A stretch of DNA of 63,989 nt, counting the filler, from Acidimicrobiia bacterium (GTDB lineage Bacteria > Actinomycetota > Acidimicrobiia > Spongiisociales > CAZKJJ01): NCBI GenBank assembly GCA_046759765.1. It is 16 parts of 16 records of this genome, joined end to end, with 100 filler letters (N's around TTAATTAATTAA, not from the genome) between each part and the next. Parts side by side here need not be neighbours in the genome. Positions count along the whole stretch, not along the records: positions 4,435 to 8,758 come from JBHICV010000188.1; 15 more parts are not named here. One strand, 5' to 3'. The translations under genes were made by a program, and so were the position numbers. Below the pieces are notes generated by a model. It was not told where the DNA came from. It made no database searches and saw only the letters and a program-made list of their open reading frames with translations. This document shows positions 4,335 through 10,931 of the stretch, in pieces (position 1 is the first letter of the stretch; each line of letters begins with the position of its first letter).

Positions 4335-4434
4335 NNNNNNNNNNNNNNNNNNNNNNNNNNNNNNNNNNNNNNNNNNNNTTAATTAATTAANNNNNNNNNN
4401 NNNNNNNNNNNNNNNNNNNNNNNNNNNNNNNNNN
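4335..4434. other. artificial contig linker; others at 8759-8858, 13052-13151, 17342-17441, 21617-21716, 25847-25946, 30037-30136, 34166-34265, 38196-38295, 42215-42314, 46146-46245, 50073-50172, 53920-54019, 57767-57866, 61582-61681
   Basis: identical 100-nt N44-TTAATTAATTAA-N44 spacers with stops in all frames; genes are cut at both sides. Confidence 0.98.
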
Positions 4435-4483
4435 GGCGAGGAGGGCGAAGAGGGCGAGTACCAAGGGGGTACCTACCTCTAGT

Positions 4484-4590
4484 TTCCTGTCAATCTCAGC
4501 CGTGGAAAGCGCGGCTCATATTGACAGGAACGCGGACCCAGGTTTTCTGTCAATCTCAGTGCCGCTCAGCGCCATTGCGATTGACAGGAA
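4484..4590. repeat. two tandem 47-bp REP-like palindromes
   Basis: TTCCTGTCAAT..ATTGACAGGAA (4484-4530) and TTTCTGTCAAT..ATTGACAGGAA (4544-4590), each followed by CGCGG; third copy at 16791-16837. Confidence 0.85.
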
Positions 4591-4596
4591 CGCGGC

Positions 4597-5364
4597 CTAC
4601 CGGCCCTTCCACTCCGGCGGGCGCTTATCGAGGAAGGCCTGCACCCCCTCCCGGGCGTCTTCGGTCTGGGCCACCTCGGTCAAACGCTCATGGAGAATGT
4701 CCAAGGCGGTGTCCAGGTCGAGGTCCTCTACCTCGTAGAAAGATTGGCGGCCTTTCGCCAGGATCACGGGGCTCTTCGCAGCCAGCCCAGCAACGACTTC
4801 GTCCACGGCCGCGTCGAGCTCGGAGCCCGGCACCACCCGGGAAACGACTCCGAGCCGCTGGGCCTCATCGGCCGAGACCAATCGGCCGGTCATCATCAGC
4901 TCCAGGAGTGTCTTGTGGGGCATCACCCGCTGTAGCACCGCGGTGATCATCATCGGCCACAAGCCGACGTCGATCTCAGGTGTCCCGAACCGGGCCTCCT
5001 CGGTCGCCACCACGACGTCGCAGGCAGCCGCCAGCCCGAATCCGCCCGCCAGCGCGTGCCCGTTGACCCTGGCCACCGTCGGCTTGCCCCGGCGGAGCGT
5101 GCGAAAGAGGTCGGCCAACACTCGCCTCGCCTGGTGCAGCGCCTCGGGCTGATCGACGAACCCTGACCTGAGGTCGGCTCCCGCCGAAAAAGCCCGATCG
5201 CCGGCCCCGGTAATCACGATGACCCGCACCTCATCGTCGGCCTCAGCCTCCTTCACCATCTCTAAGACCTCCGCGATGGCGTCGGTGGAGAGCGGATTAC
5301 GACGCTCCGGATCGTCGATCGTGATGGTGGCGCGGGGCGGATCCACCTCGTACCTGACGGTCAC
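4597..5364 (-). CDS. enoyl-CoA hydratase/isomerase (crotonase) family protein
   Basis: AFSAGADL, NGHALAGGFGL, FGTPEIDVG, REGVQAFLDKRPPEWKGR. Confidence 0.92.
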   Translation of the reverse strand: MTVRYEVDPPRATITIDDPERRNPLSTDAIAEVLEMVKEAEADDEVRVIVITGAGDRAFSAGADLRSGFVDQPEALHQARRVLADLFRTLRRGKPTVARVNGHALAGGFGLAAACDVVVATEEARFGTPEIDVGLWPMMITAVLQRVMPHKTLLELMMTGRLVSADEAQRLGVVSRVVPGSELDAAVDEVVAGLAAKSPVILAKGRQSFYEVEDLDLDTALDILHERLTEVAQTEDAREGVQAFLDKRPPEWKGR

Positions 5365-5433
5365 TCCAACCTCCGCAAATCCAGAAACCGGGTGTCAATA
5401 CGGTAACCGGGTCCCCTGGTACGGTTCTCGCCC

Positions 5434-6021
5434 ATGGAGTGGCTCGCCTTGGTGCTGTTCGTGTCGGTCACGGTGGCGCTGCTTCGAGGAGGCCGGCTCA
5501 TCAACCTCGCCGACATCAGGCTCCGTGCGTGGTGGCTTCTGATTCTCGGGTTTGGTCTCCAGGTCGCTTCCAACTTCCTTCCGGAGGATGCCTCGTGGGC
5601 TAGCTCGGTGGGAGTCGGCTTGGTGCTCGCCTCCTTCGTACCGCTGCTGATCCTTGTTTTCCTGAACCGCGACAAGCCCGGCATGTGGCTTGCCGCCATC
5701 GGCATCCTCATGAACTTCACCGTGATCGCACTCAATGGGGGAATGCCCGTTCTGACGGAAGCCGCCCAGGTCGCCTCCGGCTCCGAAGGAGACGTCATAC
5801 TCGACGACTACAAGCACGTCGTCATGGACGCCGACACCTGGCTGCCTACCCTCGGCGATGTGATCCCGCTCCGTCTCCTCGGCGTGGGGACGGTCATTTC
5901 CCTCGGTGACGTGTTCCTGGCCGTGGGGCTGGGAGTGTTCCTGGAGTCGGAACTCCGACGCCCCATCCGCTGGTTCAAGAAGGGCGCCCGCTCCCGCAGC
6001 GGGTCGGCCGCCGGGGGTTAG
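5434..6021 (+). CDS. DUF5317-like integral membrane protein
   Basis: multiple TM helices; GG.L.NL, N...IALNGGMPV, LGDVIP, SLGDVFLAVG motifs recognised as DUF5317-type; adjacent to HD-GYP genes. Confidence 0.75.
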   Translation: MEWLALVLFVSVTVALLRGGRLINLADIRLRAWWLLILGFGLQVASNFLPEDASWASSVGVGLVLASFVPLLILVFLNRDKPGMWLAAIGILMNFTVIALNGGMPVLTEAAQVASGSEGDVILDDYKHVVMDADTWLPTLGDVIPLRLLGVGTVISLGDVFLAVGLGVFLESELRRPIRWFKKGARSRSGSAAGG

Positions 6022-6039
6022 GCCCCGGCGCCAAGGCCG

Positions 6040-7284
6040 CTAGCTCGCCACCACCTCTCGTCGGACCAGCACCTTACGAACCGCCTGGACCACCTGTGGG
6101 TCGTAGTCGTAGGCCGCGCCGCGGTGAAGAATCTCGAGCGCCTCCAGAGCAGACATGCTCAGGTCGACGGTGGCGTGATCGAAAGCGCTGGCCACCTTGA
6201 CGATCTTCGAGCTAATCGGAAGCGACTCGTCCTCGTGCTCGCCTGGTCGCCGATAGGGGCTGTGCTGCATCTTCACGAGCTCGGCCACCTCCGTCAGATA
6301 GGGCGCCTCGGAGATGATCTCGGCGCCCCACCGGGCGATGTCCTCGTCCGTGAAACCCCTCTTGATGATGCTCGGCTCGTTGAGCGTGATCCGTCCGATG
6401 TCGTGCATCAGCGAGGCATAGGAGAGTTCGGTTACTTGATCGGGGCTGAGTCCCAGCTCTTGACCGATGGCCACGGCGAGGTCGGCGGTCCGGTCGCTGT
6501 GGCCGTCGGGTGACAGACCGGCCACCTCCGGGATCCTCGCCAGCGCACGGATCGTCTGTGCATAGGTTCCCCGGGCTTCGTGATAACGGTGAAAAGCGAC
6601 GTGAACGAAGCCGTAAGGAATGAGCGCTATGACGAGCGCAGCCGGCCCAATGGTGGGGAATGCCACTCCGAACAAGGCACCGGTCGCCAGGAGGCTCGCT
6701 CCGACCGGCCAGTCCCTCAACGCGACGGTCCATAAGTACCGGCGTGATAGCTGTGACCGGGCGAACGTGAGGTACGCCCACAGGAACGTCTCCACGAGGA
6801 ACCAAAGCGTTCCCGCCAACGCCAGAGCCACCAGCTGTGCACCGAACCCGTCCTCCCTGAACGCGGTGAGCTGGGACAGCTCCTCGAAGGCCGCCGTGTC
6901 AATGACCAAGAACACCGCAATCCCGATCGTCTGCCGGACGAGGGCCGCGAAAACCGTTACGTCTGCTTCCTGTCGGAGGAGCTCTATCAGCCAGGCGATC
7001 AGTAGACCGGTAGCGGCAGCCGAGAGCGCCCAGTCCAACGCGACATCGCCTGTGAAGTCGGGACCGTTGCGGTAGAGGAGCGGAAAGGCGGCGGCCACGG
7101 CGAAGGCCAATGAGAAGCGATGCCCGCTAAGGGAAGGCACGGAAACGAGCCATCCGGCGGCCAGGACCATCGCACCGATGGCTACCTCCCATATGAACCC
7201 GGTCGTGAGCGCCACGAAGGCAACGAGTCCCCCGGCCCAGATCCAGGGCAGCGCTCGGGTGGATTGCCAGGCGAACTTCTTCAT
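6040..7284 (-). CDS. membrane-anchored HD-GYP-like protein, degenerate catalytic site
   Basis: multi-TM N-terminus; GHSDR, MHDIGR present but QHSPY replaces HHExxDGxGYP and VASAFD replaces VADxFD; ATG overlaps upstream TGA (7281-7284). Confidence 0.8.
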   Translation of the reverse strand: MKKFAWQSTRALPWIWAGGLVAFVALTTGFIWEVAIGAMVLAAGWLVSVPSLSGHRFSLAFAVAAAFPLLYRNGPDFTGDVALDWALSAAATGLLIAWLIELLRQEADVTVFAALVRQTIGIAVFLVIDTAAFEELSQLTAFREDGFGAQLVALALAGTLWFLVETFLWAYLTFARSQLSRRYLWTVALRDWPVGASLLATGALFGVAFPTIGPAALVIALIPYGFVHVAFHRYHEARGTYAQTIRALARIPEVAGLSPDGHSDRTADLAVAIGQELGLSPDQVTELSYASLMHDIGRITLNEPSIIKRGFTDEDIARWGAEIISEAPYLTEVAELVKMQHSPYRRPGEHEDESLPISSKIVKVASAFDHATVDLSMSALEALEILHRGAAYDYDPQVVQAVRKVLVRREVVAS

Positions 7285-8666
7285 GCTTGCTCTGCTCCGT
7301 CGCTCCGAGCGGCGACCCCCGCGGTCCACCCCGGCACCGACTTGCGGATCTCGGCCAGCCGCCTCGCTCTCGTTTCATCGTCGAGGTTGGGCGAGCCGTA
7401 GCGTTCCCCAGTCTTGGCAAGGGCACTTTCGAGCGCTTCGACCACCTCAGGGTCGAACTGCGTTCCCGCATGGCTTCTCAACTCCGCGATCGCATACTCC
7501 TGTGTCAGCGCCATCCGATAGGTGCGGGTGCTGGTCATCGCATCGAACGCGTCCGCCACCGCGAGGATCCTGGCCTCGGGCGAGGGTATCTCCCCTTCGG
7601 TATGACCGGTGCCGCCGTAGCCCTCACCGTTGAAGTGAGCGTGGTGCCCCGAGGCGATCTCCACCATGGGACGGAGGAACTCGACCTCGGCAAGGATCTC
7701 TTCGACCACCTGGGCGTGGCGCTGCATCTCGCCGTATTCGGCGGGGGTCAGCCTGCCCTTCTTTCGGATCAACTCCCGGGGGACGGCCAGCTTCCCCACG
7801 TCGTGAATGAGCGCTGCCCAGCGCAGCTGTTCGATCCTCGTTCCCGAGAACCTGAGCTCCTTCCCGATGATCTGCGTGAAATAGGCCACACGCTCCGTAT
7901 GGCCGCGCGTGTATAAGTCCTTCGCCTCCAGCGCTTTGATGAAGCCGCGCAGAGTGGCTTCGTGCGCTTCCCTGAGCTCCCCGTACGAGGCGAAGGAGAG
8001 ATATCCGATGACGAAGACCACGAAGATGAGGGGCAGGATCGTCGGCTCGAGGTGGTAGGTCGCACCGAGCAGGCCTCCCAGGGCCCCCATGACAATATGG
8101 GACGGGACAAGCTCCCCCAGGCCCGACCACGGACGCATCCTGCGATCGGCATAAAGCATGCGCACCGCGTAGGCGACCAGGCCCAGATTGACAGCCGCGT
8201 GCATTCCGGCGGCCAGCGCCGCGCCGACAGCGGCCAGGGCCACATCGGCCGTATCCCAGGTACCCGTCGAACTCAGGAACGGCTCGAGGACCAGACCGGC
8301 GACCGTCTCCGTGACCACGTACTGGCCGAAGTTCATCATCGGTACCAGCACGCGCCGCTCCTTCACGTCGCGCTGGTTGAACATCCCCAGGGCGCCGAGC
8401 GCGGCCATCCCGAGGGCGGCGGAGCCATGCCCGAATACGACACCGGCCACCAGAGCGACCATCACCGCGGGGCTGGCCTTCAGCCGCTCGTTGACCTCTA
8501 CCGAACGCCATTCGAGGAAAGCAAAGGCGGCGGCAAATGGGATCCAGACCGAGAGCGGCGGGAACTCTTGCCAAAAAGCCAGGCCGACGAGACAGGCAAC
8601 ACCGGCAGATGCATAGAGGACGGCCAGGCGCACCTTCTTGCGCTCTAGCCTTTGCAACTCCGGCAC
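7281..8666 (-). CDS. membrane-anchored HD-GYP phosphodiesterase
   Basis: about 7 TM segments, then EAKDLYTRGHTERV, IHDVGK, HHAHFNGEGYG, VADAFDAMTSTRTYR; GAGGAG before GTG. Confidence 0.88.
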   Translation of the reverse strand: MPELQRLERKKVRLAVLYASAGVACLVGLAFWQEFPPLSVWIPFAAAFAFLEWRSVEVNERLKASPAVMVALVAGVVFGHGSAALGMAALGALGMFNQRDVKERRVLVPMMNFGQYVVTETVAGLVLEPFLSSTGTWDTADVALAAVGAALAAGMHAAVNLGLVAYAVRMLYADRRMRPWSGLGELVPSHIVMGALGGLLGATYHLEPTILPLIFVVFVIGYLSFASYGELREAHEATLRGFIKALEAKDLYTRGHTERVAYFTQIIGKELRFSGTRIEQLRWAALIHDVGKLAVPRELIRKKGRLTPAEYGEMQRHAQVVEEILAEVEFLRPMVEIASGHHAHFNGEGYGGTGHTEGEIPSPEARILAVADAFDAMTSTRTYRMALTQEYAIAELRSHAGTQFDPEVVEALESALAKTGERYGSPNLDDETRARRLAEIRKSVPGWTAGVAARSDGAEQA

Positions 8667-8708
8667 CTCCTCAGCCCTTTTCGGTGAGGACGGCCCGGGA
8701 ATACTCGC

Positions 8709-8758
8709 TCAGTCGATTCTGAACCCAGCGCTTCCTACGACAATCAGTGTTGCCAAGC
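8709..8758 (-). CDS. C-terminus of a small hydrophobic peptide (...LATLIVVGSAGFRID*), 5' end cut by contig edge
   Basis: minus-strand codons TTG GCA ACA CTG ATT GTC GTA GGA AGC GCT GGG TTC AGA ATC GAC TGA ending 42 nt upstream of the HD-GYP start; missed by the ORF track. Confidence 0.55.
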
Positions 8759-8858
8759 NNNNNNNNNNNNNNNNNNNNNNNNNNNNNNNNNNNNNNNNNN
8801 NNTTAATTAATTAANNNNNNNNNNNNNNNNNNNNNNNNNNNNNNNNNNNNNNNNNNNN

Positions 8859-9559
8859 AGGCCCACCAGTCCGAGATCGCCGCGCTGGTGACTCGCATGG
8901 CCACCGGAATGGTGTGGGCGAGCAGAACTTTCCAGGACCAGGACGGCGTCCTCGCAGACATTGCACAGCTACAGCGGTATTGCCACATAGTGATCGGTGA
9001 GCCGACCCAATTCGTACTGCGCTTGATCGCTCGCCGCCCGCTGAACCCGACGGAGACCCACGATGCTCTGGAAGTAAGCGAGTTGATCCAGCTGGCGAAC
9101 GTCACCCGCGACATCGAGCGTGACCTGGCCCGCGGCGTTGCATACCACCCCGCACTAGCCCCCTATCTCGGAAGCCAACCATCGACTCAAGAGGCAATCG
9201 ACACGGTGCAGCGGGCAAGGCTCTCCTTGACCCGGGCGGCGTTGAGTCGAGTACCGGCCTATCGGCGGCTAGCGGACGCCATCCATCTGCGAACTGTCAG
9301 TCCCGAACGAGGTGCGGCCGTCGCAATGCTCCAATTCACGGCAGGGCACTACGAGCGCCAAGCCGCGCTGCTAGGCCTGCCCAAGGCTCGCCGCGCCTCC
9401 CCCAAGGGCAGCGTCGTGGCTGCGGCGCTGGCCGCCGGAGTGTCGCGAAGGTGGGCTGATCGGCAGCTCGAGCGGAGCGAGCGTCGGATGCTGTCGCTGG
9501 CCGCCGCGCTCGAGAGCCTCCCGGAGAGCGCAGTGACTCCTCGTAGGAGAGACACCTGA
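8859..9559 (+). CDS. squalene/phytoene synthase family protein (5' truncated)
   Basis: MATGM, LQRYCHIV.G, QLANVTRDIERDLARG motifs. Confidence 0.75.
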
Positions 9560-10016: not shown

Positions 10017-10931
10017 TCAGTCCTCGGCCGGCTGTGCGGGTGGCAGTGAGCTTATGAATCGCCAAAGTGCCGTTAGCTCGTCATCGGTCAGTTCAGAGAA
10101 GATGGGCCAAGGCATGGCTTCGTCGTCCAGCCGGTCGCCGGCAGGCGTGATACCGGTCCGCAGCGCAGTGACAAAGTCGGTTTCGGTCCAAGTCCTCAGA
10201 TTTCCGGCCGGAGTCAGGTTCCTGGGAATCGGCTCGTCGGCGGGAAACTCGACCTGGCTCCCCTTGGGCTTGGTCCCGCCGGCGAAGTCAGTCCCGTGGC
10301 AGATCACGCACACCCCGTTGGCGATGTGGGCCCCGTACTCGATTGAAGGTGGCGGCGCCGGAGCCGGCGGCCGAGGAGCCTCATGGTCAATCAGGGCGGC
10401 CGTTGGGTTCAACAGACCCATGACTGTTCCCAGGCGGCCCATAGGCTTGATGGACGTGTTGGGAAGGATGTTGTCGACCGCAGGAACGTTCTTGAGGTAG
10501 GCGATGATCGCGCCCAGCTCCTCATCGCTGAGGCTGTGCAGAGTCTCGGGCATGATCAGGATCGAACGGCCGCTGGGCTTGATCCCGTGGCGGATCGCCA
10601 ACACCCAGTCCTCGTCCCGGTAGAAGGAACCCACGCCACCCTCGCCGGCCGTGAGATTCGGGGCTACGACCTTGGCCGCCTCGTCCTCGAACAGTATGTC
10701 CCCCTCCATGTGGTCGCCATGACAGGCGGCACACCCGGCCCAGGTGGTGGCGAGGTGCTCCCCAAACGCGATCGAATCCGCGTCGGTCGGGACTGCTACA
10801 GGGGAGGGCTCCACGTCGTAGGTCTTGCGGAGCTCGAGCTCGGACAGGACGAAGATCGCCAGGCCGGCCAGCAGCACCAGCCCCATCAATCCGACTACTA
10901 CGTAGATCAGCCATCTAATGACTCTGGCCAT
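10017..10931 (-). CDS. membrane-anchored diheme cytochrome c
   Basis: N-terminal TM; CAACH and CVICH, each followed by PNLT/RNLT and MP (Met ligand) motifs. Confidence 0.88.
   Translation of the reverse strand: MARVIRWLIYVVVGLMGLVLLAGLAIFVLSELELRKTYDVEPSPVAVPTDADSIAFGEHLATTWAGCAACHGDHMEGDILFEDEAAKVVAPNLTAGEGGVGSFYRDEDWVLAIRHGIKPSGRSILIMPETLHSLSDEELGAIIAYLKNVPAVDNILPNTSIKPMGRLGTVMGLLNPTAALIDHEAPRPPAPAPPPSIEYGAHIANGVCVICHGTDFAGGTKPKGSQVEFPADEPIPRNLTPAGNLRTWTETDFVTALRTGITPAGDRLDDEAMPWPIFSELTDDELTALWRFISSLPPAQPAED

Follow-up and report, generated by a model that had tools for sequence, protein, structure and literature searches.

Does a short open reading frame (ORF) cut off at the end of a contig, just upstream of two membrane-bound HD-GYP genes, represent a real gene, and what could its product do there? 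The question arises from a stretch of 63,989 bases (the window) of the Acidimicrobiia bacterium assembly GCA_046759765.1, which consists of 16 contigs ordered by size (4.3 down to 2.3 kb) and joined by 15 linkers. A preliminary description had proposed that the ORF encodes an exported peptide signal, which is cleaved by a nearby DUF5317 membrane protein and sensed by the transmembrane domains of the HD-GYP proteins in an agr-like layout. The observation on which that proposal was built is real, and the agr-like reading is only partly supported. The ORF is a real conserved gene and represents a new family of microproteins, which belongs to a five-gene cassette. Its product has about an even chance of being a membrane subunit or intramembrane ligand that acts on the MASE9-like sensor domain in the first HD-GYP protein (HD3), encoded by the first gene of an operon with HD3 and a second HD-GYP protein (HD2). 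The features concerned are as follows.

Positions 8709 to 8758, minus strand: last codons (15-29) and TGA of the microprotein gene, whose orthologue is complete in related loci.
Positions 7281 to 8666, minus strand: HD3, membrane domain plus C-terminal HD-GYP domain (HD_5, E value 2.1e-34), with an alternative TTG start at 8657.
Positions 6040 to 7284, minus strand: HD2, membrane domain plus C-terminal degenerate HD-GYP domain (HD_5, E value 8.4e-13), starting with ATG at 7284.
Positions 5434 to 6021, plus strand: DUF5317 membrane protein (PF17248, E value 2.3e-31), convergent on HD2.
Positions 8759 to 8858, no strand: assembly linker of the form N44-TTAATTAATTAA-N44, a non-biological contig boundary.

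The cassette lies on the second contig of the window (4435-8758, 4324 bp, 64.6% G+C), and relatives of the proteins encoded by this contig come from metagenome-assembled genomes of Acidimicrobiia. Within it, the minus-strand frame LATLIVVGSAGFRID followed by TGA occupies 8758-8709, and its stop is separated by 42 nt from the GTG start of HD3 (8666) or by 51 nt from the alternative TTG (8657). The contig ends with base 8758, and therefore only 15 codons and the stop are visible, whereas approximately 14 codons, the start and the ribosome-binding site fall outside. The 15-residue tail alone is not significant against the profile of the family (E value 0.05); it aligns with family positions 15-29 at the orthologous location upstream of HD3, and 12 of its 15 residues are one of the two commonest at their positions, including the invariant A24 as well as G22, R27 and I28. 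In addition, a 458-residue protein with a TTG start (P0001), identical to HD3 of the window, was found on two contigs, and the longer of these, of 5238 bp, might include the start of the microprotein gene that the window lacks.

Copies were sought in 80 Acidimicrobiia loci, which were retrieved from a genome collection by means of an alignment of 30 HD3 relatives. A profile of the last 32 residues encoded by 11 upstream ORFs was run on all stop-to-stop frames of these loci and of the window; each locus gave no more than a single match, invariably on the HD3 strand and immediately upstream of HD3, and the best match elsewhere in about 0.8 Mb of six-frame sequence had an E value of 0.035. Of the 73 loci whose sequence extends more than 150 nt upstream of HD3, 70 carry the microprotein ORF; two of the exceptions (L076 and L077) have a recognisable degenerate copy whose stop was lost, and the third (L073) has none. 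The degenerate copy shows AD in place of AG in loci that also lack the fifth cassette gene, X (see below), and may be a case of natural partner loss. A start codon is present at codon -29 in 63 of the 70 loci (GTG in 30, ATG in 18, TTG in 10 and CTG in 5), giving a length of 29 codons, and a Shine-Dalgarno-like 4-mer precedes it by 4-16 nt in 61 of these 63, compared with 25% of random 13-nt windows. Measured in 62 of the 70 loci, the gap between the microprotein stop and HD3 has a median of 46.5 nt. The stop-to-stop frame does not exceed 33 codons in 12 of the 70 loci and 45 codons in 34, which excludes that the microprotein is the tail of a long protein. Thus, two observations that would have undermined the preliminary description, namely the lack of a conserved small ORF at homologous loci and the lack of a start codon or the presence of a long reading frame, were not made, and the arrangement that it reported (a small minus-strand ORF 42 nt upstream of two coupled multi-transmembrane HD-GYP genes that converge on DUF5317) was confirmed.

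The pattern of substitution is that of a protein-coding gene. All but one of the 70 nucleotide sequences are unique, and the length of 29 codons has been kept despite this divergence. Pairwise comparison of the 69 distinct sequences gave mean differences of 0.447, 0.319 and 0.629 at the first, second and third codon positions, and the ratio of nonsynonymous to synonymous differences (pN/pS) was 0.54 in frame versus 0.89 and 1.35 in the shifted frames, although pS is close to saturation and the ratio is only rough. A search of 1.84 billion representative proteins with the profile yielded 50 matches at an E value of 0.001 or better (best 1.7e-9), of which 49 are short proteins, 14 of them exactly 29 residues long; 48 of the 49 match at their own C-terminus, and the remaining one (P0167) ends 3 residues short. 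The fiftieth, a 1218-residue repeat protein, was taken as a false match, and no fusion of the microprotein to an HD-GYP domain was present among the 50. Five microprotein copies matched no family in Pfam or NCBIfam (the best E values, 0.25 and 0.28, are noise). Since the orthologues are complete, short and conserved, the microprotein is neither the end of a long protein nor a chance frame.

The 29-residue hydrophobic consensus is MKxKLxRLxxTxGSLAAALxAGxASxKVG. A24 does not vary in the 69 distinct sequences, A21 and G22 are each found in 67, and K2, K/R4, K/R7, L15, A16, K/R27, V/I28 and G29 are strongly kept. The tail, S/N/T-L/F-K/R-V/I-G, is conserved throughout the class, with conservation at positions 24-29 over the 69 distinct sequences, and no conserved Cys is present. 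Positions 13, 17, 21 and 24 are always small, a spacing that suggests a helix-packing face. The product has the features of a small membrane regulator, i.e., fewer than 50 residues, a single hydrophobic helix and genetic linkage to a sensor. The signal-peptide-like architecture that had been pointed out earlier is present as well: by inspection of the alignment columns, basic residues in positions 1-7 are followed by a hydrophobic core of about 13-17 residues and by G22 and A24 at -3 and -1, as in a Sec signal peptide.

HD3 is the catalytically intact member of the pair. Its HD_5 domain (PF13487) scores 119.1 bits against a cut-off of 27.2, and its best matches in the PDB are 5z7c (E value 1.9e-35) and 4mcw. 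As the former is a phosphodiesterase of 3'3'-cyclic GMP-AMP (3'3'-cGAMP), the substrate of HD3, cyclic di-GMP (c-di-GMP) or another cyclic dinucleotide, is putative. The metal-binding and catalytic set (H, HD, K, H, HH, D, D) is invariant in all 59 orthologues. Within the GYP motif, G349 and Y350 are invariant and the place of the Pro is taken by G in 28, H in 24 and V in 3 of the 59 orthologues; the window copy is exceptional in the HH..D.G.GY motif, where it has N346 instead of the Asp of 58 of the 59 orthologues. It also carries Glu for the nearly invariant Asp of a VEVND motif. At one related locus (L005:5998-8514) the HD3 frame is open for 838 codons and overruns HD2 in another frame, probably owing to a missing stop or an assembly error.

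The membrane domain of HD3 was assigned six long hydrophobic segments, or transmembrane helices, and a re-entrant hairpin in a 36-residue region on the basis of hydropathy of the orthologue at locus L022. Among its polar residues, E51, N53, S59, D94 and Q109 are invariant and D54, N106 and N153 nearly so. These features agree with the layout of MASE9 domains. In the available part of their paper, Galperin and Chou assign eight hydrophobic segments to MASE9, with two of them folded into a short intramembrane hairpin, and a polar core, note its fusion to HD-GYP, and propose that it binds its ligand inside the membrane; no ligand or partner is named in that part (10.1101/2021.11.05.467447). HD3 resembles these proteins in its segments, hairpin and polar core, and its relatives P0009 and P0020 (62-64% identity) score 26.6 and 27.7 bits, above the cut-off of 24.3 for the Pfam profile of MASE9 (PF20972). 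It differs in that the window copy is below the cut-off (no match at an E value of 5 or better) and in that a candidate encoded partner is proposed here.

A co-fold was calculated for residues 1-232 of the L022 HD3 (31 rows) with the L022 microprotein in its 32-residue ORF version (31 rows in the same locus order). The score was 0.66 (0.71, 0.66 and 0.63 in the three runs), whereas the best of three controls reached 0.00; the mark applied was attained in calibration by 116 of 157 solved complexes, against 2 of 215 mismatched pairs, counts which are only a rough guide here because author-made alignments were used. The runs share at least 95% of their contacts, and the predicted local distance difference test (pLDDT) of the partner is 71-78. 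On the microprotein side, confident contacts involve residues 15-16 and 18-29, i.e., the conserved half. On the HD3 side, they involve residues 46, 49, 51-52, 54-65, 91, 93-94, 99, 102, 105-106, 110, 146-164, 179-189 and 214-221, including the invariant E51, S59, D94 and V157 and the nearly invariant D54, N106 and N153. HD3 contact positions are more conserved than the others (mean entropy 1.29 bits, n=45, versus 1.68, n=187; one-sided p 0.0045), and at the corresponding pocket positions HD2 has P for E51, S for D54 and R/E/D for N153. These predictions lend in silico support to, rather than demonstrate, binding of the microprotein to HD3 and the site involved. L076 and L077, the two loci with a small ORF that lost its stop, have HH or HD in place of R98-R99 of HD3, which is only anecdotal because a single evolutionary event is concerned.

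In the model, the peptide runs parallel to transmembrane helix 5 (TM5), its higher-numbered residues touching higher TM5 and lower TM4 numbers. Given a topology based on the cytoplasmic HD-GYP domain and on the Arg/Lys-rich loops 92-106 and 166-177, its C-terminus would face the cytoplasm and its tail would lie in the inner half of the helix bundle, which argues against sensing of an external peptide. This orientation is only a model, because the method is ignorant of the membrane.

HD2 is probably a non-catalytic partner of HD3. It scores 48.8 bits for HD_5 (against the same cut-off of 27.2) and keeps the HD dyad; among 71 aligned rows, H317 is absent in 69, H341 is replaced by Q in 54 and D372 by S in 63, and it therefore lacks the full metal-binding and catalytic set. 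The GY motif is deleted in 69 of the 71 rows. The two genes are coupled by an ATGA overlap (HD2 ATG at 7284-7282, HD3 TGA at 7283-7281), and an HD2-type gene follows HD3 in 70 of 71 loci, or 63 of 71 under a strict spacing rule. This is a tandem of intact and degenerate six-transmembrane (6TM) HD-GYP genes in one operon, as in the HdgA/HdgB type. In Streptomyces venezuelae, hdgA (vnz24090, 6TM-HD-GYP with conserved motifs) and hdgB (vnz24095, 6TM, degenerate and without GYP) form one operon, and deletion of either gene gave no developmental phenotype, for which the authors suggested that the activating signal was missing (PMC6205966). The likeness is one of arrangement, with the same intact-to-degenerate order; in contrast to the cassette described here, the portion of that account available makes no mention of a microprotein, DUF5317 or X. 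A mention of hdgA in 10.64898/2025.12.10.693408 turned out to be a misspelling of hgdA.

DUF5317 (PF17248, 109.3 bits versus a cut-off of 25) was found in 62 of 63 loci and is convergent in 61; in the window, its stop lies 18 nt from that of HD2. The AlphaFold (AF2) model, built from a 59-row alignment (pLDDT 83.9, predicted template-modelling score 0.76), has five helices, a beta-rich segment and a final helix, with a part predicted to be outside the cytoplasm. Invariant polar residues include R18, N24, N78, N94, N101, K127, D142, S156 and D159, and D142 together with D159 would make an enzymatic role possible. A Foldseek comparison of this fold with the PDB gave no match at an E value of 0.001 or better (the best query-normalised template-modelling score was about 0.3), a search of the Atlas retrieved DUF5317 clusters and DUF5317 fusions to the major facilitator superfamily (MFS) and no outside look-alike, and no peptidase family was assigned by Pfam or NCBIfam. 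Intramembrane peptidases of the GxGD aspartyl, rhomboid, site-2, CAAX/Abi and AgrB types were considered and rejected, as neither fold nor profile showed any likeness. Six proteins are longer forms of DUF5317, five of them MFS fusions and none containing HD-GYP. The fusions with MFS transporters (PF05977/PF07690) are P0172-P0176, and the fusion cluster in the Atlas is mostly from Chloroflexota. No paper mentioning DUF5317 was found in a literature search. DUF5317 is a conserved, probably accessory part of the cassette.

The fifth gene, X, lies beyond the window in related loci. It has about 205 codons, runs divergently from the microprotein gene on the other strand at a distance of 280-450 nt upstream, and is present in all 59 loci with at least 1300 nt in that region; the L022 copy occupies 4911-5525 on the minus strand. 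No match was found for X in Pfam, NCBIfam or by sequence in the PDB (Pfam LeuA_dimer reached only an E value of 0.013), and there are 2374 database relatives, all source names among the 120 listed being "hypothetical protein". Its AlphaFold model (pLDDT 87.4) resembles the allosteric domains of LeuA and citramalate synthase (1sr9, 3fig and 3f6h; Foldseek E values 1.5e-5 to 1e-3, probability 1.00), with a target-normalised template-modelling score of 0.55-0.59 for the isolated domain. Unlike these enzymes, X is a stand-alone protein of about 205 residues without a catalytic domain. X is taken as a cytoplasmic, conserved and probably accessory protein of the cassette, with a predicted LeuA-regulatory-like fold. 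A gamma-glutamyltranspeptidase gene (PF01019; L022:3355-4911) was present beyond X in all eight loci examined, which may be mere local synteny.

The five-gene cassette of X, microprotein, HD3, HD2 and DUF5317 is found in Acidimicrobiia, and some Bacillota have a version of it with only one HD-GYP gene. A tblastn search of a plasmid collection with DUF5317 returned three records. Two of them are from Bacillota, namely Natranaerobius thermophilus (NZ_CP144220) and Subdoligranulum variabile (OY725879), and both show X, a short ORF, a gene for a transmembrane HD-GYP protein and DUF5317 in this order on one strand. X of Natranaerobius is 35% identical to that of L022 (E value 6e-37), and the short ORF is the top match of the microprotein profile in each record (E values 0.0056 and 0.019), keeping an AG-x-A-S/F-F core in the form of LAGGASF in one and LASGAFF in the other. 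In the Natranaerobius record (NZ_CP144220.1, L083, 4520-6318), the HD-GYP and DUF5317 genes are each annotated in two pieces and a nearby oxidoreductase gene in three, which points to frameshifts or pseudogenes. In Nonomuraea gerenzanensis (Actinomycetes), DUF5317 is solitary, with no HD-GYP gene nearby.

Taken at face value, the co-fold points to a mechanism in which residues 15-29 of the microprotein would dock into the polar intramembrane core of the MASE9-like domain of HD3. The docked peptide might act as a built-in subunit or an intramembrane ligand and, by analogy with the action of MgrB or SafA on PhoQ, could set or gate c-di-GMP hydrolysis by HD3. Several points weigh against this reading. 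The whole case is computational, an effect on enzyme activity is something that we infer, and even the pN/pS contrast is subject to the saturation noted above. The co-fold controls were unrelated natural proteins, maybe not hydrophobic helices, and the score may therefore not be specific with respect to other transmembrane peptides; moreover, the membrane domain of HD3 was the only partner modelled. The modelled orientation would place the N-terminus with its three Lys/Arg residues outside, contrary to the positive-inside rule. The microprotein also fits a Sec signal peptide, and its cleavage is possible. Finally, in the one genome of class Actinomycetes examined (Nonomuraea), no microprotein, X or DUF5317 was found within 6 kb of an HdgA/HdgB-like tandem, indicating that the microprotein is not obligatory for such pairs.

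Other explanations should be weighed against these data. That the frame is a chance occurrence in GC-rich DNA is hardly credible: the window alone shows 15 codons with a profile E value of 0.05, whereas the conservation, start codons, ribosome sites and frame-specific substitution of the orthologues, together with the E value of only 0.035 for the best match elsewhere, speak for a gene. The ORF could also be a cis-acting leader whose translation controls the downstream HD-GYP genes and whose peptide is functionless in trans, which would suit a short ORF with its own ribosome site at the observed median distance from HD3. We consider this very unlikely, since purifying selection extends across the whole helix and its small-residue face, the length is fixed at 29 codons while 69 of 70 nucleotide sequences are unique, no Rfam element was detected on the contig of the window or in the L022 leader, and the co-fold passes. 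A promoter scan of the L022 leader gave no site, and the three terminator-like hairpins there are within about two standard deviations of chance. A role as a membrane subunit of DUF5317, of HD2 or of a complex of all of them, and not of HD3 specifically, is a rather less remote idea, if still an unlikely one; 62 of 63 loci have DUF5317 together with the cassette, and so do the two Bacillota records, in which HD-GYP is represented by only one gene, but the microprotein gene is immediately upstream of HD3 in every case, and the co-fold with HD3 passes where the controls score 0.00, through invariant HD3 residues that have no counterparts in HD2.

The exported signal of the preliminary description would require a 29-residue precursor that is cut after AG-x-A by DUF5317 or signal peptidase I, with the freed peptide of 5-6 residues being sensed outside. 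The geometry agrees with this (basic K2, K/R4 and K/R7, a hydrophobic core, G22 in 67 and A24 in all of 69 sequences, and five residues thereafter), as do the contact of the tail with the HD3 membrane domain in the co-fold and the invariant D142 and D159 of DUF5317 combined with its part predicted outside the cytoplasm. However, peptide pheromones are known to diversify between lineages, whereas this tail is kept class-wide and is recognisable even in Bacillota, with A24 in 69 of 69 sequences, so that a diffusible quorum signal finds no support. The strong conservation of L15 and A16 in the middle of the helix would be unneeded by a mere export signal. Sensing by the transmembrane domains gained in silico support as far as contact with HD3 is concerned, but not as an external site, the modelled one being in the cytoplasmic half of the bundle. 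The membrane protein could not be recognised as a precursor-cleaving peptidase: DUF5317 showed no peptidase fold, with no PDB match at the threshold above, no look-alike in the Atlas and no likeness in Pfam or NCBIfam. Moreover, genes for exporters or importers are not conserved in the cassette neighbourhoods examined, and an agr-like layout finds no support, given the absence from the cassette of an AgrB-like enzyme, a Cys-containing AgrD-like precursor and a kinase. An exported signal is therefore improbable.

A wider version of the subunit or ligand reading, in which the five genes form a self-contained and previously undescribed module, is also rather unlikely, though deserving of mention. 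In such a module, the microprotein would serve as the encoded ligand of an orphan intramembrane sensor of the MASE type, DUF5317 as a novel membrane enzyme or chaperone that processes, removes or delivers it, and X, by way of its LeuA-type allosteric domain, as a coupling to a cytoplasmic metabolite. If this were true, c-di-GMP hydrolysis would depend on how much of an intramembrane peptide is present or in which form, and in the boldest version the cleaved tail would also act between cells.

Small membrane proteins that act on a membrane sensor have precedents in MgrB and SafA, which regulate PhoQ. The microprotein resembles them in its single hydrophobic helix of fewer than 50 residues, its linkage to a membrane sensor and its proposed binding to the membrane part of that sensor. 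It differs in that no sequence relationship exists (no family was matched), that the target would be a c-di-GMP phosphodiesterase and not a histidine kinase, and that the modelled site lies inside the helix bundle. With agr (AgrD/AgrB/AgrC), SHP and Phr systems, it shares a precursor-like ORF beside membrane proteins, and its basic N-terminus and hydrophobic core are like those of SHP-type peptides; in contrast to these systems, the cassette contains no AgrB-like peptidase, kinase or RRNPP receptor, no transporter is conserved among the neighbours examined, and the tail is conserved, unlike their lineage-specific signals. A literature search, mostly of titles and the beginnings of abstracts, found no small protein linked to HD-GYP proteins, c-di-GMP phosphodiesterases or MASE domains. 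One paper considered as such a link (10.1101/2020.04.24.060822) proved irrelevant in the part available.

Membrane domains of the MASE type are widespread in c-di-GMP enzymes, and an encoded partner would provide a concrete handle on them; the present candidate names one peptide and about a dozen mutable residues on each side. In addition, the cassette joins three uncharacterised families (microprotein, DUF5317 and X) across two phyla, and offers a further example of functional genes of 30 codons being overlooked in short contigs.

The remaining features of the window are of less concern for the cassette. Beyond DUF5317, the same contig carries a further gene.

Positions 4597 to 5364, minus strand: enoyl-CoA hydratase gene (ECH_1, E value 4.8e-55).

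Such a gene comes next after DUF5317 in 46 of 58 loci and is thus syntenic, without evidence of a functional link. Linkers of the form given above occupy 4335-4434, 8759-8858 and 13 further places; because the window consists of joined contigs, features near a linker are cut off and genes on its two sides are not genomic neighbours. On the next contig, an ORF at 8888-9559 is a partial squalene/phytoene synthase-like gene (PF00494, E value 5.1e-8), and a 304-residue ORF at 10017-10931 with two CxxCH motifs looks like a membrane-anchored cytochrome c; both are unrelated to the cassette.

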